This document shows, piece after piece, positions 1 to 42,792 of a stretch of 64,000 nucleotides of DNA. Within the stretch, counting starts at the first letter, position 1. Each line of letters begins with the position of its first letter. A program made the translations under genes and the position numbers. Origin of the DNA: an uncultured Verrucomicrobiae bacterium (GTDB lineage Bacteria; Verrucomicrobiota; Verrucomicrobiia; Chthoniobacterales; Chthoniobacteraceae). The stretch is from positions 92,942 through 156,941 of the forward strand of contig CAVYKI010000002.1 of assembly GCA_963769025.1 (NCBI GenBank), read 5' to 3'. The notes beneath the pieces are model-generated. The model was not told where the DNA came from. It saw nothing but the letters and a program-made list of their open reading frames with translations, and did no database searches.

Positions 1-34
1 TGACGGCAGCCGGCTTCTGGCGTTGCCTTGACTC

Positions 35-691
35 ATGAAAGCGTTCCTCCCTCTCGCTCTCGCCGCGGTTTTTGTCGCCGCTGCTTTTCCCGCTTCTGCG
101 CAGCAACGGCCGAGGAAGGGCGACCTTCGCATGCCGGACACCGTGCGCGTGGGCGACGCGGCACCGGACTTCAAACTGAAAACACTCGATGGTTCGCGTG
201 AAGTGCAGCTCTCCAGCTTCCGCGGCAAGCGGCCGGTGGTCCTTGTCTTCGGGAGTTACACCTGACCCCCTTTCCGGAGTCAGGTTGGCTCCATCGAGCA
301 GCTCTACGCGGACTACAAGGACAAGGCCGAGTTCTTCATGGTCTATATCAAGGAGGCTCATCCCACCGACGGCAGAGTGTCGCCAGGCAATGCGCGCGGC
401 GGGATCTCCATTCCCGATCCGAAGACGTATGCCGAGCGGGCCGATGTCGCGCACAAGGCATGCACGGAACTGAAAATCACCCTCCCGTGTCTCGTGGACG
501 GGATGAACGATGCCGCGAACAAGGCCTACGCCGCGTGGCCGGATCGGATCTACGTCGTGGATGCCACCGGGAAGATCGCGGTGAGAGGCGGGCCGGGGCC
601 GTCCGGTTTTGCGCCTTCGATCACCGAGACGCGGGTGTGGCTCGGCAAGATGTTTGGGCCGAAAGGCGCGGCGTCTCCCGGTTCCCGCTGA
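35..691 (+). CDS. Secreted iodothyronine-deiodinase-family (thioredoxin-fold) selenoprotein; in-frame UGA (Sec) at 263-265
   Basis: Track ORFs 35..265 and 338..691 share one frame. The only interruption is TGA 263-265, and codons 266-337 are open. The joined product reads ...RPVVLVFGSYT-U-PPFRSQ...FFMVYIKEAHPTDG...LVDGMNDAANKAYAAWPDRIYVV.... This matches the deiodinase active-site signature FGSxT-U-PPF and the downstream YIxEAHPxDG block. Signal peptide MKAFLPLALAAVFVAAAFPASA. A GGU-loop hairpin starts 10 nt after the UGA, and selD is adjacent. Confidence 0.85.
276..292 (+). promoter_or_regulatory. Candidate bacterial SECIS hairpin of the deiodinase-like gene
   Basis: GGAGUC-AGGUU-GGCUCC: a 6-bp stem (one G.U pair) with an apical loop containing GGU. 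It starts 10 nt after UGA 263-265, and the loop is about 16-20 nt from the UGA. Confidence 0.55.
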
Positions 692-708
692 CGCACTTTC
701 CGCGGCGG

Positions 709-1773
709 TCAGTCTTTGCCGGAATAGCGGACCGAGATCACCGAGGGGCCGCTGCGGACGATCTTGCCGATAACCGCAGCGCAGGGAGTGAGATGTTTTT
801 TCAAGAGCGCCAGCACGGCGGAGAAATTCTTCTGCGCGACGCAGAGAAGGAGGCCGCCGCTGGTCTGCGCATCGGTAAGCAGCGAACGGAAACGCTCCGG
901 CGTGCGATCCCAATCGGTGATCGCGTTGGCCGTTTCTTCATTCTGCCTGCTGCCGCCGGGCACGCATCCTTCGGCGATGAGCGAAAAGATTTCCGCGCTG
1001 ATCGCCGGGACGGATTCGGCGGTGATCTCCGCACTCACGCCGCTCGCGCGACACATCGAGGCGAGATGCCCGAGCAGGCCGAAGCCCGTCACATCCACCG
1101 CCGCGCGGACGAGTTCCTTTTCCGCAAGCACCGCGCCGCTGGAATTGAGCTGCGACATCAGCGTGATCACCTTTTTGCCCAGCGCTGCGGAAGCGATCTG
1201 CCGTTTGATTCCCGTCGTGGCGATGCCGGTGCCGAGCGGCTTTGTGAGCACGAGCAGATCGCCTATGCGGGCGCGGGCATTTGTCAGCATCCGCCTGGGC
1301 GAAACGAGCCCGGTGACTGCGAGGCCATAGATCGGCTCGGGATTCCGGATCGTGTGGCCGCCGACGATCGTGCAGCCCGCCTCGCGTGCCTTCATTGCGC
1401 CTCCGCGCAGGATGGCGGCGATGGCATTCGGCGGGACGAGATCCGGCGGGATGCCCATGATGTTCAGCGCGGTCAGCGGACGCCCGCCCATCGCATACAC
1501 ATCGGAGAGCGCATTGGCCGCCGCGATTTGCCCGTACTGCCGCGGGTCGTCCACGACGGGCGTAAAGAAGTCCACCGTCTGCACCAGCGCGATGTCGCGG
1601 GTGAGACGCCAGACGCCTGCATCATCGGCCGTGGAGGAGCCGACGAGCAGCCTGGGATCGTCGATGCGTGGAAGCTGGCGCAAGACTTGCGCCAGGGCCT
1701 GTTGGCTCAGCTTGGAAGCTCAACCGGCACAGGACGACAACTCGGTCAGACGGAGAATTGGTTTGCGGGACAA
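709..1773 (-). CDS. selD: Selenide, water dikinase (selenophosphate synthetase), Sec-containing form; UGA (Sec18) at 1722-1720
   Basis: Track ORF 709..1683 (LLVGSSTADDAGVW...TVDFFTPVVDDPRQYGQIAAANALSDVYAMGG...) is a SelD body lacking its N-terminus. Reading on upstream in the same frame gives M(TTG 1773)SRKPILRLTELSSCAG-U-ASKLSQQALAQVLRQ.... This is the GxG(C/U)xxK catalytic loop, with U at the E. coli Cys17 position and K three residues later. A 13-nt SD, AAGGAGGUGAUCC, lies 6 nt upstream of the TTG. Confidence 0.9.
1675..1695 (-). promoter_or_regulatory. Candidate bacterial SECIS hairpin of selD
   Basis: On the mRNA strand: CUGGCGCAA-GUC-UUGCGCCAG. The inverted repeat is a perfect 9 bp (8 bp if the loop opens to AGUCU). 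It starts 24 nt after UGA 1722-1720, and the apical loop contains GU. Confidence 0.6.
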
Positions 1774-1889
1774 ATGGATCACCTCCTTTCGATTTCCAAA
1801 AGACCGCTGGTCCGCCGAAAGCCAAGGAGAAACCTCGGCCCGGAGAATTCCCGTTTGACGGCCCCGTGGGACGAATCGACCGTGGAGCC

Positions 1890-3059
1890 ATGAAAGCAGC
1901 CATCGCCCTCACGTTGTTCGCCGCTCTCGCATGGACGCACGCCAACGGCGCGACGCTGAACGAGGAATTGTCCGGTTTTTCCAAGCGCTTCGAAGCCGCC
2001 CAGCCGTCCGAAAGCCAGCAGGCGATCTGGAAGCTCGACTGGGAGGATCACCTTTCCACCGCCCTCGCGCGCGCGAAAACCGAGCGCCGGCCGATCCTTT
2101 TCATCCACGTCACCAACATCTCCGGCCCGTCCTACTTCGGTGCCGGGCATTGTTGAGCAAATGCCGACCACGTGAGAGGCAGTTGCCTCTCCCACAGTGA
2201 CGCGATCGAGGCACTCAGAGGATTCATTGTCACGTCTTGGAGCGGTCACACCGACATGCGCGATCCGAAGGACATGCCGCCTGAAGTTGCGCGTGTGCAT
2301 GCCACGGCCGCGGGCACGCGTGTGAAAGGCAACATCAAGTGCTTCATCCTCGCACCCGACGGCGAGGTCGAGGCGGTGTTCAATGCGTTCCCAAACAACG
2401 ATGTCACCTCCTTCGGCTTCGACGCGGACGAAGCCGGTCGCTACTTTGCGAAGAGCATCCGGCATTTCTCGAGCGGACTGAAAATCCCCGATCCCGCGAA
2501 GAAGGATTCGCGACTTGCGCTGCCGAAGACCCTCCAGGACGGCACGCCGGCAGACGCGCGGCTCGTGCTTCATGTTTCGCCAAAATCGCAGCCGTCCCAA
2601 TACCGCGCCGCCGTGGCCGAACCGTTGCGGCTCGGAATCGAGGCCCGTTCCGCGCTGAGTGGAGGGGGGAAGCCGGTGAAGGAATCGGGCACGGTCGCGG
2701 CCAGTTCGCTCGCGACCGTGCTGAAGCTTTTCTACCCGCCGGCGATCATGCAGGAGACCGGCGAGATCAGCGCGGTCGCAGGGACGCTCAATCTGAGTCC
2801 CATCGGCGCCAACAGCGACGGCGCTTGGGCAAAACTCACCGGTTCCGCGACGCTCACGCTGGACGATGGTGCGGACACGAAGTTCCCCGTGGAAGTGGAC
2901 GCGCTGGTGCTCACGGATCCGGCCAGCGGCGCGTTCAAATCCGTGCGCGGCATTCTCAATGGCGTTTGTCCGAAAGTGGCTGGCAAAAGCGGACCCGGAC
3001 GGACGCATCAACTGGAAATGACCGGCACTTTCACGAGCCTCGACGCGGATTCGAAGTGA
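1890..3059 (+). CDS. Secreted thioredoxin-like protein with vicinal Cys-Sec (UGA at 2154-2156); candidate new selenoprotein
   Basis: Track ORFs 1668..2156 and 2172..3059 are in the same frame, separated only by TGA plus 15 open nt. ATG 1890 (GGAG 4 nt upstream) gives the signal peptide MKAAIALTLFAALAWTHANG. The N-terminal pattern W..L..AL.RAK.E.RPILF resembles Thioredoxin_7/DUF255-type domains, and the UGA sits in the expected redox position: ...YFGAGH-C-U-ANADHVRGSC.... A 7-bp hairpin starts 17 nt after the UGA. The gene is divergent from selD. Confidence 0.7.
2174..2191 (+). promoter_or_regulatory. Candidate bacterial SECIS hairpin of the Cys-Sec protein gene
   Basis: GAGAGGC-AGUU-GCCUCUC: a perfect 7-bp GC-rich stem with loop AGUU (contains GU), starting 17 nt after UGA 2154-2156. 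Confidence 0.6.
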
Positions 3060-3467
3060 TCGGTCTTGGTTCCGGACGTCCGGTCGCGGTGAGCAGTTCT
3101 GTTCAGCTCCCGAGGAGGCTTGAGGCGTTTTCCAGAACGTGTGCACCGGAGCGCCAAAGTATTCATGGCCGGTGTCTCAACCCCGGTTGACATGCAGAGG
3201 CGGTCTCCGTAGACAAAATCCCATGGGCAACAAACCGAACCCGTTCCTGATCGCCGATGGCGGGACGTTGATGGGGCGGTTCCTTCGGGCGAGTGCGGGT
3301 GTCCGTTTGGTCGAGGGCGCGTGCGGATCATTGGTGGGCGTTTATCCATTCAACACCAAGCCGCCGAGCACCCGGGCAATCGCCGGGTTCGTCGTCCGCC
3401 TTCCGCTTTGATGCGCACCCCGGCGCTTCCACGCGGCGTGTTTCCGAGGCTTTCCCGGTAGCAAAGC

Positions 3468-4391
3468 ATGAACTCCACAGACGGCATCCTCTTCAGTCTG
3501 ATCGTTCCGACGCTGAACAGGCACGACGACGTGGAGCGGTTGCTGGTGTCGATTGCCGGGCAGTCGTGCCGGGATTTCGAGGTCATCATCGTCGATCAAA
3601 ACGCGGACGATCGCCTCGGCGACCTATGCCGCGAGTTTGCGCGCCGCATGCCGCTGCTGCACCTGAAGGTGGAGTCGAAGGGGGCAGCGCGCGCGCGCAA
3701 CCACGGGCTTGGATTTGCAAAAGGTGGCATCATCAATTTTCCGGATGACGATTGCCAGCTCACGCCGGGATTGCTGGAAACCGTGGCCGCGCTCCTGAAG
3801 CAGAATCCTGACTGGGATGCGGTTTTCGGCCGCGCGATCGATCCGGTTTCAAAGGAAAGCTCAGTCACCAAGTTTGACTCGCGGGCGCAGTGGGTGACGC
3901 CAGGAAACGTCTATCAGACCACCGTGGAATTCACGATGTTCGCCAGACGATCGCTTTTCGACGAAGTCGGCCTGCTGGACGAAAATCTCGGCGTCGGGAC
4001 GTTTTTTGGTGCGGAAGAGGGCGCGGATTTTGTGTTGCGCGCGCTCTACAGGAAGAAGCGACTTTTCTACGACCCCTCGTTGCTGTTCTACCACGTGGAA
4101 AAAGTGGTCCGGTACGACGAGAAGGATCACGTGCGGGCGTACGAATATGGAAAGGGTTTCGGCCGCCTGTCGGTGAAGCATGCCCGGCTTTACCGGCAGC
4201 CGAGGGCTGCGCTGCGGTTCCTGTATCGGCTGGTGCGGGCCGCGATGGCGGTGGCGCTTTACCTCTGTCTGCTGAAGCCGAACCAGAGCAAATACTATCG
4301 CGAACTCATCCGCGGAAGGATGGTGGGAGTCTTCCGCTCCTGGAGCGAATTTGGGCGAAACGGCGCGGCCACGCTGCAGAAGAAATGCTGA
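3468..4391 (+). CDS. Family 2 glycosyltransferase
   Basis: N-terminus FSLIVPTLNRHDDVERLLVSIAGQSCRDFEVIIVDQNADD, then GAARARNHGL and FPDDDC (DxD-type). This is the classical GT2 GT-A pattern. Confidence 0.85.
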   Translation: MNSTDGILFSLIVPTLNRHDDVERLLVSIAGQSCRDFEVIIVDQNADDRLGDLCREFARRMPLLHLKVESKGAARARNHGLGFAKGGIINFPDDDCQLTPGLLETVAALLKQNPDWDAVFGRAIDPVSKESSVTKFDSRAQWVTPGNVYQTTVEFTMFARRSLFDEVGLLDENLGVGTFFGAEEGADFVLRALYRKKRLFYDPSLLFYHVEKVVRYDEKDHVRAYEYGKGFGRLSVKHARLYRQPRAALRFLYRLVRAAMAVALYLCLLKPNQSKYYRELIRGRMVGVFRSWSEFGRNGAATLQKKC

Positions 4392-4476
4392 ACGATCGCT
4401 GCCGGGAGGTTTGCGCGCGCCGGCCTTGCAACTTCAAAGCGAATAGACTTATGACTCCGTGAGCGCCAGTCCCCCG

Positions 4477-5652
4477 ATGAGAATCACCCTGAACGGCTAC
4501 TACGGCTTCGCCAATTACGGCGACGAGTTGTTCAATTTGACGACGGTCCTCGCCGCGCAGCGCTGGTGGGGAGGGCATCACGTGGACATCCTCGGTCCGC
4601 CGGTCCCGGGCATCGCGGCGGAATACCGGGTGCCGGCGTGGTTTCCCACGGCCCTCTACACTGGGCCGGGAGCGGTCGGGAAGGCGATCCGGCTGGCATT
4701 CTGTGCGGATGCGATGCTGCGGCGCGACTTACTCCTGTACGCAGGCGGTTCCACACTTTCATACGGCAGTATCCTCAAAAAAATCCAGAGGATCGCCGCG
4801 GAACGGAACTGCATCAAATTTGCCGGCATCGGCGTTTCCATAGGCCCGTTTGCAGATGCAGCGGACGAAGCGGAGGCCGCGCGTTTCCTTCGCAAGTTCA
4901 CCTGCATTTCCGTGCGCGACAGACGCTCGATGGACCATCTCCGGAAAATGGACATCCCGGTGAAGGCGTTGCTGGCGCGGGATCTCGTGGGTGCCCTGCC
5001 GCTCTTGCTGCCAGAGGGCGAAACCATGCAATCCGCCGGTGCAGGGAGCGCGCGCAAACCGCTGGGGATTTCACTCCGCGACTACGAGTGGCCCGATGCC
5101 GGAGACACGGCAGCCGCAGCTCGGAAGGAGGCGTTGTTCAAAGGCGTGGAGCGATTCGTAAAGCGCGAGCGGGTGCCGGTCCGCATTTTCTGCCTGAACA
5201 CCCACCCGCGTTCGGGGGATCAGGCGATGTCATCCCAGCTTGCGGAGCGCCTGACCCGGCAGGGCGCGGAGGTCGAGGTGATCAGCGCAAAGGACAACCT
5301 CCTCGGTTGCTGGCACGGGCTGGCATCTTGCTCCGCGGTATTCACCGTCCGTCTTCACGGTGCCATCACCGCGTACCTATGCGGTGTACCACTGGTCCAG
5401 ATCGAGTATCACGACAAGTGCACCGATCTGATGGATGACATCGGCCAGCACGCATCCTTGCGCATCGGCGGAGGCCATACCGATCCCGCGGCGATCGAGC
5501 AGGTCCTCGACCGGCTGTACCGTAACCCGCCGCCGCCGGCCTTGCCGCGAGAGACTTACATGGCCGAGGCCGCGTTGAACTTCACGCAGGTGCCATGGGC
5601 CACCGACCACGGAACGAAGGCGGCGGAGCATCCGGCGCAGCCCGCCCGGTGA
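4477..5652 (+). CDS. Polysaccharide pyruvyl transferase family protein
   Basis: MRITLNGYYGFANYGDELF... matches the N-terminal G..N.GD motif of PS_pyruv_trans/CsaB-like enzymes. The track ORF starts at GTG 4459; ATG 4477 gives the family-typical N-terminus. Start is uncertain. Confidence 0.75.
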   Translation: MRITLNGYYGFANYGDELFNLTTVLAAQRWWGGHHVDILGPPVPGIAAEYRVPAWFPTALYTGPGAVGKAIRLAFCADAMLRRDLLLYAGGSTLSYGSILKKIQRIAAERNCIKFAGIGVSIGPFADAADEAEAARFLRKFTCISVRDRRSMDHLRKMDIPVKALLARDLVGALPLLLPEGETMQSAGAGSARKPLGISLRDYEWPDAGDTAAAARKEALFKGVERFVKRERVPVRIFCLNTHPRSGDQAMSSQLAERLTRQGAEVEVISAKDNLLGCWHGLASCSAVFTVRLHGAITAYLCGVPLVQIEYHDKCTDLMDDIGQHASLRIGGGHTDPAAIEQVLDRLYRNPPPPALPRETYMAEAALNFTQVPWATDHGTKAAEHPAQPAR

Positions 5653-5807
5653 AACGGACAATTTCGACAATGTGGTTTGCTGCACTCACCACCCCGCAGA
5701 CCGCATCGGAATATTTCTGATCGCGGCGATTTCCACACCGAACCGATCGTGTCGCAAAAACTGAGTTTGAAGCCGGGAAACAAGGACGATGGAGGGATGT
5801 TAAACGG

Positions 5808-6932
5808 ATGAAACCAAATCTCGCCGAAGCAAGGGTAGCGTGGATCACCAGGCGCGAAGTGCTGGATGCCGATGCGCTCCCTGCCAATCATGCATGGGGA
5901 ACTGACGCCATTTTCTCGGCGGGAGCCAGGCGAGTGCAGCCGACGCGAATCCGGTGGATTGACGCGGTAGGAGCAAGGTTGCGCCTGGGGCCCAACCTCT
6001 CGGAACAGCTATGGCTCTTCTTTAACCAGAGAAAGTACGACTTCGTCATCGCCAAAGACACCGACCTGGTCTGCGTCCTCTGCGTCCTCCTCTGGTTGTT
6101 CCGGCAGAGCAAGGGGATATTCGCATTCCTCCACTTTCCGCTCCGGGTCTTCATCAAGGATTTTTTTCTGACGAAGCGTTGCAGCGTTCTCATGGCGCTC
6201 AGTGAAGAAATACACCGGCTTTCGCTCATCAGCTACCCCCGGGCAGCCCAACTTCTCAAAACCTTCGAATGGGCCGTCGATATTGAATTCTATGACCGGA
6301 TTCGCGCGGAACTGGATGCCGGTGGGCAGATCGAATCCGCAGGTGCTCCGGTGCCTGACGGCAAACTCCGCATTCTCCTCGTTGGGATCACCGGCAGGAA
6401 GTTCGCCTCATTCCTGGAGGCGACCGTTGCAGATCGGGATGTCGAAGTCCGGGTCGTGACCGATTCACCCGATGTGCTGCTTCAGATCCAGAGCCTCCCA
6501 AACTACACCCCGGTGCGGACGGAGCCGGATAAACCGGTAACCTATCGCCAACTTGTCGCGCAGTATCTCGCATGCGATGTCGTCGCCATTCCGCTGGAGA
6601 TCAAGGATGCTCCCGACGACGAACTTATCAGGCACCGGGCGACGCTTTGGGGAATCACCACCCTACTCGAAGCATCGGCCCTCGCGAGACCGGTCGTGAT
6701 GACCTTTAATCCGGTTCTAGGCTTCGACGTTGGCAGCCTGGAATGTGGCCTATGCCTCCGTGAGGACGACGCCCTCCATTGGAAAAAAGCGATCCAGTGG
6801 TGTCGCGGGCACAAGGCGTCGCTCAAGGCCATGGGTGAGCAGGCCAGGCGTAACGTCGACGAGTACTACAATTTGCGTTGCTTCCGGGAGCGGCTGAAGA
6901 CGACAATTGAAACTTACTATGCCAGTCAGTGA
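5808..6932 (+). CDS. Putative GT-B type glycosyltransferase (GT4-like C-terminal domain)
   Basis: Intact 374-aa ORF in a visibly AT-richer stretch. The C-terminal part (...WGITTLLEASALARPVVMT...GLCLREDDALHWKKAI...ARRNVDEYYN) resembles the nucleotide-sugar-binding half of GT4 enzymes. I did not recognise the N-terminal half. Confidence 0.55.
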   Translation: MKPNLAEARVAWITRREVLDADALPANHAWGTDAIFSAGARRVQPTRIRWIDAVGARLRLGPNLSEQLWLFFNQRKYDFVIAKDTDLVCVLCVLLWLFRQSKGIFAFLHFPLRVFIKDFFLTKRCSVLMALSEEIHRLSLISYPRAAQLLKTFEWAVDIEFYDRIRAELDAGGQIESAGAPVPDGKLRILLVGITGRKFASFLEATVADRDVEVRVVTDSPDVLLQIQSLPNYTPVRTEPDKPVTYRQLVAQYLACDVVAIPLEIKDAPDDELIRHRATLWGITTLLEASALARPVVMTFNPVLGFDVGSLECGLCLREDDALHWKKAIQWCRGHKASLKAMGEQARRNVDEYYNLRCFRERLKTTIETYYASQ

Positions 6933-7019
6933 CGCAACCTGGAATGGCCGGAACGAACCTCGCATCCACGCCAAGTTGGCCAGTCCGAAGGCTGCCGATG
7001 CGTTTGGATAAGGAGAAAC

Positions 7020-8381
7020 ATGCAGTTGCTTTTGCTTAGTTTGTTCTTTCTGGCGACTGTTACGTCCTCGTGGGACTTAATCGGAGTGCTCGACGTTGCC
7101 GGAGGAAATCTGCGCATTTGTTCCTTCTTCATGGTGAGTTTCATCGCGGCATCCATGATTTGCTTCAAGCCGAGTCGCGTACCCCGCGTCCGCGGATTTG
7201 TTCTTCTGCTGATTTGGTTTGGGTTCAACTTGGTTGGCGCCACGAATGCGCCTCAAGTTTTTCGAACGTATGCGTATCTCGTCTGGCTGACTCTTGACGT
7301 CGCCCTGGTCTTTGCGTGTGCAGCGGCCTTCAGGACTCCGCGAGACCTAGCCACCCTTGCGCGTTGGAACTACTACAGCTTCATCCCAATCTCGTTGTTT
7401 GGGTTGATCCAGTTTGCTGCCTATCCGCTTGGCATCAATTTGCTGGTAAAACAAACTTGGGTCTCGGTTCTGGCGCGGATTAACGGATTCTCCTACGAGC
7501 CTTCCTACTACTCGACATACATGATTGTCGGTTGGGCCATGTCCTTTGTGCTCCTCGTGCGGGGTGTACATTTTGTCCGTCCGGCGTTGAGTTGGGCTGT
7601 CTTTGGAATGCATACGGCCGTTCTTGTCCTTTGCAGCTCGCGGATTGGCTACCTCGGCATGGGAGTAATGGGCTTGGTCATGGCCCCGACAATCCTGAAA
7701 TCCTTCCGAACCTCCCGGACGAGCAGGATTTTGACATCTGTAGCGGCTCTTGGCGCGGTGGTTTTGATTGGCGGCGGGGCGGTTCTCCTCATGAGTGTCA
7801 AAGATACGCCACTTCTGCTCGAGGGGACCGGCTTGGGTGGGACAGCGGCACACTCCGTGGATCAGCGTATGGCTGGAGTCGAACTATACGAGGAATTGTT
7901 CATGGCCAACCCGTTGAAAGGCTACAGTGTGGGCGGCATCGCGGCGCAAATCGCGGGGGCGGACGGGTCCATGTCCATCGATTACGAGGCCATGCGACAA
8001 AGCCAGGGGTGCAACGTTTCGCTCGAAATCCTGCTGGCTACGGGCATCGTTGGGGCGCCGTTTTTTTTCTGGTACTTTTTCAAGCTCACCTTTGCCTCGC
8101 TCAGTCGAATCCGCACCGTTGCCGATGCGCGCATGCGTGCAATATGTGCCGCCAATATCTGGGGCCTTATCATGCAGTTTTTCCTGCTGCAATTTAACCA
8201 AAATATCTTGCGTAACTATTTTTGGATCCAAATCGCGGTGGTGTCTTGTCTTGTGACTCACGCCTTGCGCCAAAGGCGTGGAGAGCATGCACTCCCGGTC
8301 CATCATTCGCGGTCATTCCAGGCGGAGCGCGAGCACGCACCGCTTCCGGAGGCGGCCAATCTTTCCATTCCGCGAGCATGA
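7020..8381 (+). CDS. O-antigen ligase/polymerase-like (Wzy-type) integral membrane protein
   Basis: 453 aa, with about 10 or more hydrophobic segments, a large loop (...GTGLGGTAAHSVDQRMAGVELYEE...) and AAGGAG 7 nt upstream. It sits between glycosyltransferases in a Wzx-containing locus, in AT-richer sequence. Confidence 0.7.
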   Translation: MQLLLLSLFFLATVTSSWDLIGVLDVAGGNLRICSFFMVSFIAASMICFKPSRVPRVRGFVLLLIWFGFNLVGATNAPQVFRTYAYLVWLTLDVALVFACAAAFRTPRDLATLARWNYYSFIPISLFGLIQFAAYPLGINLLVKQTWVSVLARINGFSYEPSYYSTYMIVGWAMSFVLLVRGVHFVRPALSWAVFGMHTAVLVLCSSRIGYLGMGVMGLVMAPTILKSFRTSRTSRILTSVAALGAVVLIGGGAVLLMSVKDTPLLLEGTGLGGTAAHSVDQRMAGVELYEELFMANPLKGYSVGGIAAQIAGADGSMSIDYEAMRQSQGCNVSLEILLATGIVGAPFFFWYFFKLTFASLSRIRTVADARMRAICAANIWGLIMQFFLLQFNQNILRNYFWIQIAVVSCLVTHALRQRRGEHALPVHHSRSFQAEREHAPLPEAANLSIPRA

Positions 8382-42716: not shown

Positions 42717-42792
42717 GCCAGTATAGCTCAGTTGGTAGAGCGCTCGATTTGTAATCGAAAGGTCGCGGGTTCGAATCCCGCTGCTGGCTCCA
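42717..42792 (+). tRNA. tRNA-Thr (anticodon UGU), CCA encoded
   Basis: Manual cloverleaf: acceptor GCCAGUA/UGCUGGC (one G.U pair), D arm GCUC-AGUUGGUA-GAGC, anticodon arm CUCGA-UUUGUAA-UCGAA (27:43 C-A mismatch), variable AGGUC, T arm GCGGG-UUCGAAU-CCCGC, discriminator U, then CCA. Confidence 0.9.

Follow-up and report, generated by a model that had tools for sequence, protein, structure and literature searches.

A candidate Sec-obligate family of exported selenoproteins with a His-Cys-Sec site in a probable thioredoxin-like domain, from Verrucomicrobiota and Planctomycetota

To our knowledge, thioredoxin-fold proteins are the commonest kind of selenoprotein, almost all selenoprotein families interconvert with cysteine (Cys) forms, and the bacterial thioredoxin-fold selenoprotein families known to us all have abundant Cys homologs. 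Mammalian thioredoxin reductase (TrxR) carries a vicinal pair of Cys and selenocysteine (Sec, U) in its GCUG motif, and this pair is able to form an eight-membered selenenylsulfide ring. In bacteria, adjacent C-U residues occur in SaoL, SaoC, SaoB, HgcA, MbdU, KCU-star/DUF466 and form 2 of the CopZ-like 2Fe-2S proteins, none of which is listed as thioredoxin-like (PMC13188914, Table 1); the same 2026 inventory comprises 119 prokaryotic selenoprotein families, each tied to a Pfam, NCBIfam or CDD model (PMC13188914). Here we analyse a stretch of 64,000 nucleotides, referred to as the window, from an uncultured Verrucomicrobiae bacterium of the Chthoniobacteraceae (GenBank assembly GCA_963769025.1, contig CAVYKI010000002.1, positions 92,942 to 156,941 of the forward strand). 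Judging from comparative sequence analysis, its positions 1890-3059 are very probably a single gene for an exported selenoprotein of 389 residues that belongs to an undescribed family.

When the window is translated, the frame from ATG 1890 to position 3059 is interrupted by TGA 2154-2156 and by nothing else, as an original prediction made from this DNA had claimed, and the codons around the interruption read YFGAGH-C-*-ANADHVRGSCLSH (in short, GAGH-C-TGA-ANADHVRGSC). The listing of open reading frames (ORFs) gives the two halves as 1668..2156 and 2172..3059, both in this same frame; we refer to the first 88 residues as the N-piece and to the part called downstream of the TGA as the C-piece. 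A GGAG lies 5' of ATG 1890, and inspection of the window sequence revealed no purine-rich Shine-Dalgarno sequence 5' of GTG 2172, the only alternative start that the prediction had named. That codon is covered by a hairpin, so the prediction that it lies without a Shine-Dalgarno sequence inside an occluding structure has held.

The interruption is conserved across relatives. A search of the read-through product against 5.8 billion protein clusters retrieved 12 relatives with 64-100% identity, all of which span only the last 66-76% of the query, and the DNA was examined for nine such C-type relatives. In this close subfamily the same in-frame TGA is present in 10 distinct loci, whose full-length proteins are 65-89% identical; both gene calls share one frame with the TGA between them, GHC-TGA-ANADHVRGSCLSH is invariant, and the ATG 88 codons upstream is kept in most close homologs. 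With the N-piece as query, 26 relatives were found, about 88 aa long except for a few with upstream extensions and one fragment, and the 19 that were read directly each end in G(H/Q)C at the stop. A divergent subfamily of N-type sequences shares 24-39% identity with the window piece, and a metagenome scan with it as seed yielded 17 loci with TGA directly after GHC in every one of them and with the frame staying open for 260-301 codons past the TGA wherever the contig was long enough. The internal stop is TGA in all 27 loci (10 close and 17 divergent), and the true 3' stops vary among TGA, TAA and TAG. Beyond the TGA, A-(N/S)-A-D-(H/L)-x-R-G is kept at the protein level, divergent loci included, and the synonymous variation seen in the locus alignment on both flanks of the TGA, in the same frame, points to constraint on the protein. 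The neighbouring genes vary from locus to locus (sulfatases, amidohydrolases, kinases and others), and the two pieces thus travel together as one unit. Two divergent loci carry a further stop, namely a TAG 49 codons past the Sec codon in L016 (4256-4405) and a TGA 30 codons past it in L018 (3218-3310); the two copies may be decaying or wrongly assembled, and the stop in L018 might instead be a second UGA.

Shortly past the UGA stands the hairpin that had been predicted as a perfect 7-bp stem starting 17 nt downstream, and that is indeed found there (Table 1). Its AGUU loop and its 17-nt spacing are near-invariant among relatives; the apical loop of a bacterial Sec insertion sequence (SECIS) element is said, in the bSECISearch literature, to lie about 16-37 nt from the UGA and to contain a G (GU). 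Within the close subfamily, synonymous variation is seen at almost all of the residues that are conserved within 120 codons; at codons +5 to +12, which make up the hairpin, His, Val, Gly, Ser, Leu and Ser are synonymously frozen, and the sole changes (AGA to AGG and TGC to TGT) each turn a Watson-Crick pair into G-U. Covariation was evaluated in 25 sequences from both subfamilies, 24 of them distinct. In the distinct set, 98.2% of cells are paired, a figure that falls to 54-80% when the 3' arm is slid by 1-3 columns. The apical pair 27-32 is G-C in 14 sequences and C-G in nine, a compensatory switch in 9 of 24 that couples a synonymous Gly change (GGC/GGG) to a Cys/Ser change on the opposite arm; pair 22-37 is A-U in 23 sequences and C-G in one, a single compensatory switch, and the other changes are G-U wobbles. 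The covariation score of 0.274 lies above all of 500 shuffles (mean 0.154). Judged from these alignments, the stem-loop bears the evolutionary signature of a functional RNA, as a bacterial SECIS element would.

The source organism very probably has the Sec trait. Upstream of the gene, and divergent from it across 116 bp, lies a selD that itself contains an in-frame UGA; its TTG start follows an AGGAGG by 7 nt, and a 9-bp hairpin begins 24 nt past its UGA. Beyond selD is a gene for an exported deiodinase-like or peroxiredoxin-like selenoprotein, split by gene callers into ORFs of 76 and 117 aa, in which the hairpin GGAGUCA-GGU-UGGCUCC begins 10 nt after the UGA; in both genes the hairpin shortly past the UGA has a GU-containing loop. 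The syntenic relative L011 (positions 1-6000; family protein 87% identical) has the full set of Sec genes immediately upstream of its family gene: tRNA-Sec (145-241), selA and selB, then the split deiodinase-like gene and selD, together with a fragment of an Rdx-family gene. Comparison with it indicates that the window appears to begin just where selB would end. In the whole 64-kb window no tRNA-Sec was found, the sole tRNA being tRNA-Thr (TGT) at 42717-42792 (+). An ORF of 477 aa at 460-1893 (+) was rejected as a gene, since it runs antisense to selD and matches no family.

To assess the extent of the family, 1.84 billion representatives (at 50% identity) were searched exhaustively with hmmsearch, and the hits were re-analysed locally. 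This gave 143 hits, 64 of N-type and 79 of C-type, none of which bridges the junction between the two pieces, and neither this search nor two word-indexed searches found an uninterrupted or Cys-containing homolog. The N-type hits stop at the Cys88 column, as GHC in 54, GHT in three, GFC in two, GQC in one and GHG in one, the other three of the 64 being frameshifted or truncated calls; the C-type hits mostly begin M(H)VRG, within the hairpin region. On the basis that no Cys or uninterrupted homolog is detectable, the family is Sec-obligate. The UGA column is invariant, which bears on the question raised in the original prediction of whether Cys or Sec is conserved there; the complete lack of a Cys form is unusual without refuting the selenoprotein assignment. 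The residue preceding Sec is Cys in 57 of 61 representatives, Thr in three and Gly in one, and the vicinal Cys-Sec pair that had been proposed is therefore near-universal rather than absolute. The Thr and Gly variants are P0094, P0112, P0125 and P0170; in two of the Thr variants the sequence AGCNFYTGHT supplies a Cys seven residues upstream that might serve as the resolving residue instead.

As far as the sources of these sequences are named, the distribution of the family is restricted to bacteria of the Planctomycetes-Verrucomicrobia-Chlamydiae (PVC) group, namely Verrucomicrobiota (Chthoniobacteraceae) and Planctomycetota: the named sources are a metagenome-assembled genome (MAG) of the Chthoniobacteraceae, an uncultured Verrucomicrobiota MAG and several Planctomycetota MAGs, and in a profile scan of genome contigs only two GTDB species representatives carry the family. 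GenBank annotates the halves in one Chthoniobacteraceae MAG as separate hypothetical proteins, and in the Planctomycetota MAGs the N-piece and the C-pieces are each annotated as a hypothetical protein, two function labels from the Joint Genome Institute (JGI) being the exceptions among named records. In three Planctomycete-like representatives available as proteins only (P0153, P0169 and P0179), a longer ORF terminates in the N-piece, its end reading TGHC or SGHC, and also contains a hydrophobic segment and the Sigma70_r2 and r4 domains of an extracytoplasmic function (ECF) sigma factor; judging by this composition, it may be a sigma factor whose extracytoplasmic domain contains Sec.

By inspection, all N-type homologs have a hydrophobic N-terminus, and its resemblance to a signal peptide (Table 1) suggests export to the periplasm. 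Structure prediction with AlphaFold2 (AF2) from the single sequence was unusable (predicted local distance difference test, pLDDT, 37). Given the window protein with Sec masked as X and a small balanced alignment (A8) of database pieces, AF2 returned a model with pLDDT 70.8 and a predicted template modelling score of 0.59, in which helices at 23-65 are followed by beta1 (69-74), a helix (about 103-108), beta2 (113-118), an alpha-helix (131-140), beta3 (149-154), beta4 (160-165) and a last alpha-helix (179-194). Residues 69-194 thereby run beta-alpha-beta-alpha-beta-beta-alpha, the order of the thioredoxin fold. In a Foldseek search of the PDB with this model, the top matches were AGR2, AGR3, ERp19, DUF255 (3ira), YphP and 2kuc, all of the thioredoxin fold (probability 0.94-1.0, E 3e-3 to 5e-2, target-normalised template modelling score 0.42-0.52). 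A weak match to Thioredoxin_7 appeared in 12 of 31 divergent N-pieces and one to DUF255 in a single N-piece; in those members that were scanned singly, the matches span the lead-in helix and beta1 (profile positions 1-22 to 1-27) and end 8-14 residues short of GHC-U. In Pfam the window protein itself has no hit to Thioredoxin_7 (PF13899), and neither the family profile nor the thioredoxin-like domain found a meaningful match in sequence searches of the PDB. Residues ~44-195 thus probably form a thioredoxin domain of the Thioredoxin_7/AGR2-like kind. The kinship to Thioredoxin_7 and DUF255 guessed in the original prediction receives weak, sub-threshold backing from these matches, and a thioredoxin-like start to the protein is upheld by the model and by Foldseek; the prediction erred on the extent of the domain, which reaches beyond the 88 residues upstream of the TGA and is cut in two by it.

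H-C-U lies between beta1 and beta2, 8-14 residues past the CxxC position of the Thioredoxin_7 profile, so the earlier statement that the stop falls exactly where the redox motif is expected is true only approximately; the model is unreliable in this part (residues 77-97). Sec would then occupy the beta1-to-alpha1 active-site segment, after an insertion specific to the family. The core around it, G-H-C-U-A-x-A-D-H-x-R-G-x-x-L, is universal to both subfamilies, and Cys99, Cys151 and Cys360 are kept only in the close one; the Cys of the RGSC segment, which the prediction had shown in its reading of the frame, is Cys99 and thus confined to that subfamily.

The C-terminal domain has no recognisable relative. 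Foldseek against the PDB returned only low-probability matches for it, and neither Pfam nor NCBIfam matched it in 32 diverse members. AF2 models it with block-mean pLDDT mostly 79-94 over residues 251-360, and its motifs include YPP(A/G)(I/V)M, G-x-L-x-L-x-P-x-G and RG-x3-G-x-(C/Y)P(K/R). It had been described as a domain of ~300 aa; the lack of a relative stands, and the size shrinks to ~180 aa, as the thioredoxin-like domain extends to about residue 195.

Based on these data, we propose that SelB-GTP-Sec-tRNA(Sec) would bind the hairpin on the translating mRNA and that Sec would be inserted at the UGA; the nascent chain would probably be exported through its N-terminal signal peptide, and His87-Cys88-Sec89 would probably come to lie in the periplasm on an enlarged beta1-to-alpha1 loop of the thioredoxin-like domain. 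The Sec89 selenolate might be the reactive nucleophile or a ligand, Cys88 might, by analogy with the GCUG motif of TrxR, resolve it as a vicinal selenenylsulfide in most members, His87 might act as general base, and the ~180-aa C-terminal domain might bind a substrate or partner. The likely function is a periplasmic Sec-based redox or ligand-binding site.

The same product could instead use His-Cys-Sec to bind a soft metal or metalloid (Hg, Cu, As, Se) or to sense one, as a periplasmic binding, detoxification or sensor module, which we consider possible though rather unlikely. Many bacterial families with C-U are metal- or organometal-related (SaoL, HgcA, MbdU and the CopZ-like proteins; PMC13188914, Table 1), but the present family shows no sequence kinship to any of these. 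His precedes C-U almost universally, a second Cys at CxxC spacing is absent and Cys88 itself is dispensable in some members; three representatives are built like extracytoplasmic sensors, the domain being joined to a transmembrane segment and an ECF sigma factor, and the best match by fold, AGR2, is a CxxS protein that binds rather than catalyses. Yet no metal-resistance or transport genes recur alongside the family gene in 22 loci, and Sec in the active-site segment of a thioredoxin fold is most often a redox catalyst. A more specific version, to which we give little credence, is that PVC bacteria use the Sec-obligate family as an extracytoplasmic module whose His-Cys-Sec serves as a redox or ligand sensor and not as a housekeeping oxidoreductase, that in some Planctomycetes it is coupled directly to gene expression as the periplasmic domain of ECF sigma-transmembrane fusions, and that its C-terminal domain is a new fold. 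Were the sensor reading true, this would be the first selenocysteine-dependent transmembrane signalling device.

It is very improbable that the locus consists of two genes, one for a secreted peptide of 88 aa ending at the TGA and one for a protein of ~295 aa starting at GTG 2172, with the hairpin as a regulator or attenuator. Every gene caller, including the NCBI Prokaryotic Genome Annotation Pipeline (PGAP), does annotate the locus in this way, GTG, ATG or TTG stands at the 'VRG' position in most loci, and many C-type database entries begin MRG. However, the callers, which split every homolog, always do so at the in-frame TGA, which is kept in 27 of 27 loci whereas true stops vary, and the pieces always share a frame; the original prediction had named homologs consistently encoded as two genes as a finding that would speak against it. 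Protein-level conservation (A-N/S-A-D-H/L) extends through the five codons that separate the TGA from the supposed start, and the start position itself is occupied by TTC in L016, GTA in L019 and L020 and CTG in L028, so that no initiation site is conserved across the loci. In addition to the missing Shine-Dalgarno sequence, two genes would mean a thioredoxin fold severed after beta1, and a C-piece without a signal peptide while its partner half is exported. Least credible of all is a UGA read as something other than Sec (Trp or Gly reassignment, or near-cognate read-through), a pseudogene or a sequencing error, since, even though UGA-to-Trp reassignment is reported for some Verrucomicrobiota (PMC13462651) and L016 and L018 carry extra premature stops, TGA is also the ordinary 3' stop of the window gene and its homologs, the invariance of the internal TGA in independent assemblies from many samples rules out error or decay, and a covarying hairpin at SECIS distance together with adjacent Sec machinery are specific hallmarks of Sec decoding.

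Several results weigh against the preferred reading, that of one exported selenoprotein with a thioredoxin-like Cys-Sec site. The fold energy of the hairpin is not exceptional relative to shuffles (z = -1.25 to -1.35), and no SECIS or other relevant family in Rfam matches, either above the gathering threshold or at E<=10; the case for the hairpin is thus evolutionary and not thermodynamic. selA, selB and selC are not among the genes of the 64-kb window and were found only in L011. Selenoproteins are commonly recognised as Sec/Cys pairs, and here there are zero Cys homologs among 143 representatives, so that a catalytic role of position 89 is not independently marked. The Thr or Gly in place of Cys88 in four of 61 representatives means that a vicinal selenenylsulfide is not a universal mechanism, and the lack of a conserved neighbour leaves nothing that points to a substrate or reductant. 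As to the fold, the Thioredoxin_7 matches are all below threshold (best 16.2 bits against a threshold of 27, E 0.008-0.12), and hhalign of the family profile with human AGR2 gave a local match of 27 columns at 8.6% probability, which was not used as evidence. Lastly, AF2 confidence falls below pLDDT 50 over residues 77-97, the stretch in which Sec lies, in part probably owing to alignment A8, which put the terminal GHC of the N-pieces on G97-S98-C99.

Clustering over the 22 loci found no recurrent neighbour gene, only the family gene itself and overlapping alternate-frame ORFs. In the window, the gene is followed by a run of glycan-biosynthesis genes (3468-8381, +). The features discussed here are collected in Table 1.

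Table 1. Features of the selenoprotein locus and its surroundings (positions are those of the window; functional and structural assignments are predictions)
Feature	Position	Strand	Description
Deiodinase-like/peroxiredoxin-like selenoprotein gene, exported	35..691	+	Pfam AhpC-TSA and T4_deiodinase on the two halves; UGA 263-265, FGSYT-U-PPF
selD, Sec-containing selenophosphate synthetase	709..1773	-	Pfam AIRS and AIRS_C; UGA 1722-1720, SSCAG-U-ASK
Complete selenoprotein gene, probable	1890..3059	+	88 codons, UGA (Sec89), 300 codons, stop TGA 3057-3059; product 389 aa
Signal-peptide-like N-terminus	1890..1943	+	MKAAIALTLFAALAWTHA/NG; by inspection: basic n-region, hydrophobic core, T-H-A site
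Probable thioredoxin-fold domain, Thioredoxin_7/AGR2/ERp19 type	2019..2474	+	residues ~44-195; AF2, Foldseek, weak Pfam
Putative active-site triplet His87-Cys88-Sec89	2148..2156	+	CAT TGT TGA; Sec codon 2154-2156
Putative bacterial SECIS-type hairpin	2174..2191	+	7-bp stem GAGAGGC/GCCUCUC, apical loop AGUU, begins 17 nt after UGA
C-terminal domain, ~180 aa	2523..3056	+	residues ~212-389; two helices and a five-strand antiparallel beta meander (AF2)
Family-2 glycosyltransferase	3468-4391	+	
CsaB/WcaK-like polysaccharide pyruvyl transferase	4459-5652	+	
ORF without assignment	5808-6932	+	
Membrane protein	7020-8381	+	weak below-threshold match to Wzy_C (O-antigen ligase)

The original prediction of a new selenoprotein family is borne out by the databases of models. 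Pfam and NCBIfam give nothing above noise for the read-through protein, for 10 full-length homologs or for 32 diverse C-pieces, and the family, set apart by these models, is absent from the 119-family inventory (PMC13188914). The discovery of bacterial selenoproteins leans on Sec/Cys pairs or on known families, as in SECIS-independent searches, the homology filter of deep-Sep and BSepDB; the latter gathers known families only (PMC13326102), and the authors of deep-Sep state that selenoproteins without Cys homologs may be misidentified or missed (PMC12013277). The present family would be a case from this blind spot. Its members, from two phyla, fall into about 140 clusters at 50% identity, and in every named GenBank or JGI record examined one half is entered as a protein of its own, in most cases a hypothetical one; recognition of the family would mend a systematic annotation error in Verrucomicrobiota and Planctomycetota genomes. 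As a Sec-only family it would also be a natural test case for why Sec, and not Cys, is used, and it would add to periplasmic biochemistry a vicinal Cys-Sec centre in a thioredoxin-like scaffold and a domain of unknown fold.

Among described proteins, the closest in architecture are those of the Thioredoxin_7 (PF13899), DUF255 and AGR2-AGR3-ERp19 type. They share with the new family the lead-in helix and beta1 (IW...A..(R)AK.E.(R/K)P(I/V)L..), the beta-alpha-beta-alpha-beta-beta-alpha order and a secreted or periplasmic location. Unlike them, the new family has an insertion of 8-14 residues between beta1 and the redox residue, H-C-U where they have CxxC or CxxS, a conserved Asn-(Ile/Val) that appears to replace the cis-Pro before beta3, and a fusion to an unrelated C-terminal domain of ~180 aa. 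The known thioredoxin-fold selenoproteins (Trx7/PDZ NF041199 with CxxU, VPGUxxT NF041383, the HUIPC-motif family NF047660, Sec-Trx, DsbA-like and DsbG-like) have Sec in or near the active-site segment, as the new family probably does, and a SECIS hairpin just past the UGA, and many of them are exported. They have UxxC or CxxU, however, whereas the new family has C-U; their Cys homologs are abundant, whereas the new family has none, and no NCBIfam or Pfam model matches it.

The vicinal Cys-Sec pair is shared with mammalian TrxR, where it is the penultimate dipeptide on the flexible tail of a flavoenzyme; in the new family the pair is internal, preceded by His and set in a thioredoxin-like domain, Pfam and NCBIfam reveal no flavoprotein domain, its Cys varies as described above, and there is no homology between the two. 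With the Sao, HgcA, MbdU, KCU-star and CopZ-like families it likewise shares adjacent Cys-Sec, their folds and families being unrelated, and the models of these C-U families gave no relevant match for the window protein or for 32 diverse members (NCBIfam release 20, Pfam). The original prediction had known of no described bacterial family with C-U inside a thioredoxin-like fold; adjacent C-U as such has precedent in the bacterial families named here, none of which is listed as thioredoxin-like (PMC13188914). Seen against all these systems, the decoding of Sec is conventional, and what is new is the H-C-U site, the obligate Sec, the novel C-terminal domain and the distribution restricted to PVC bacteria.

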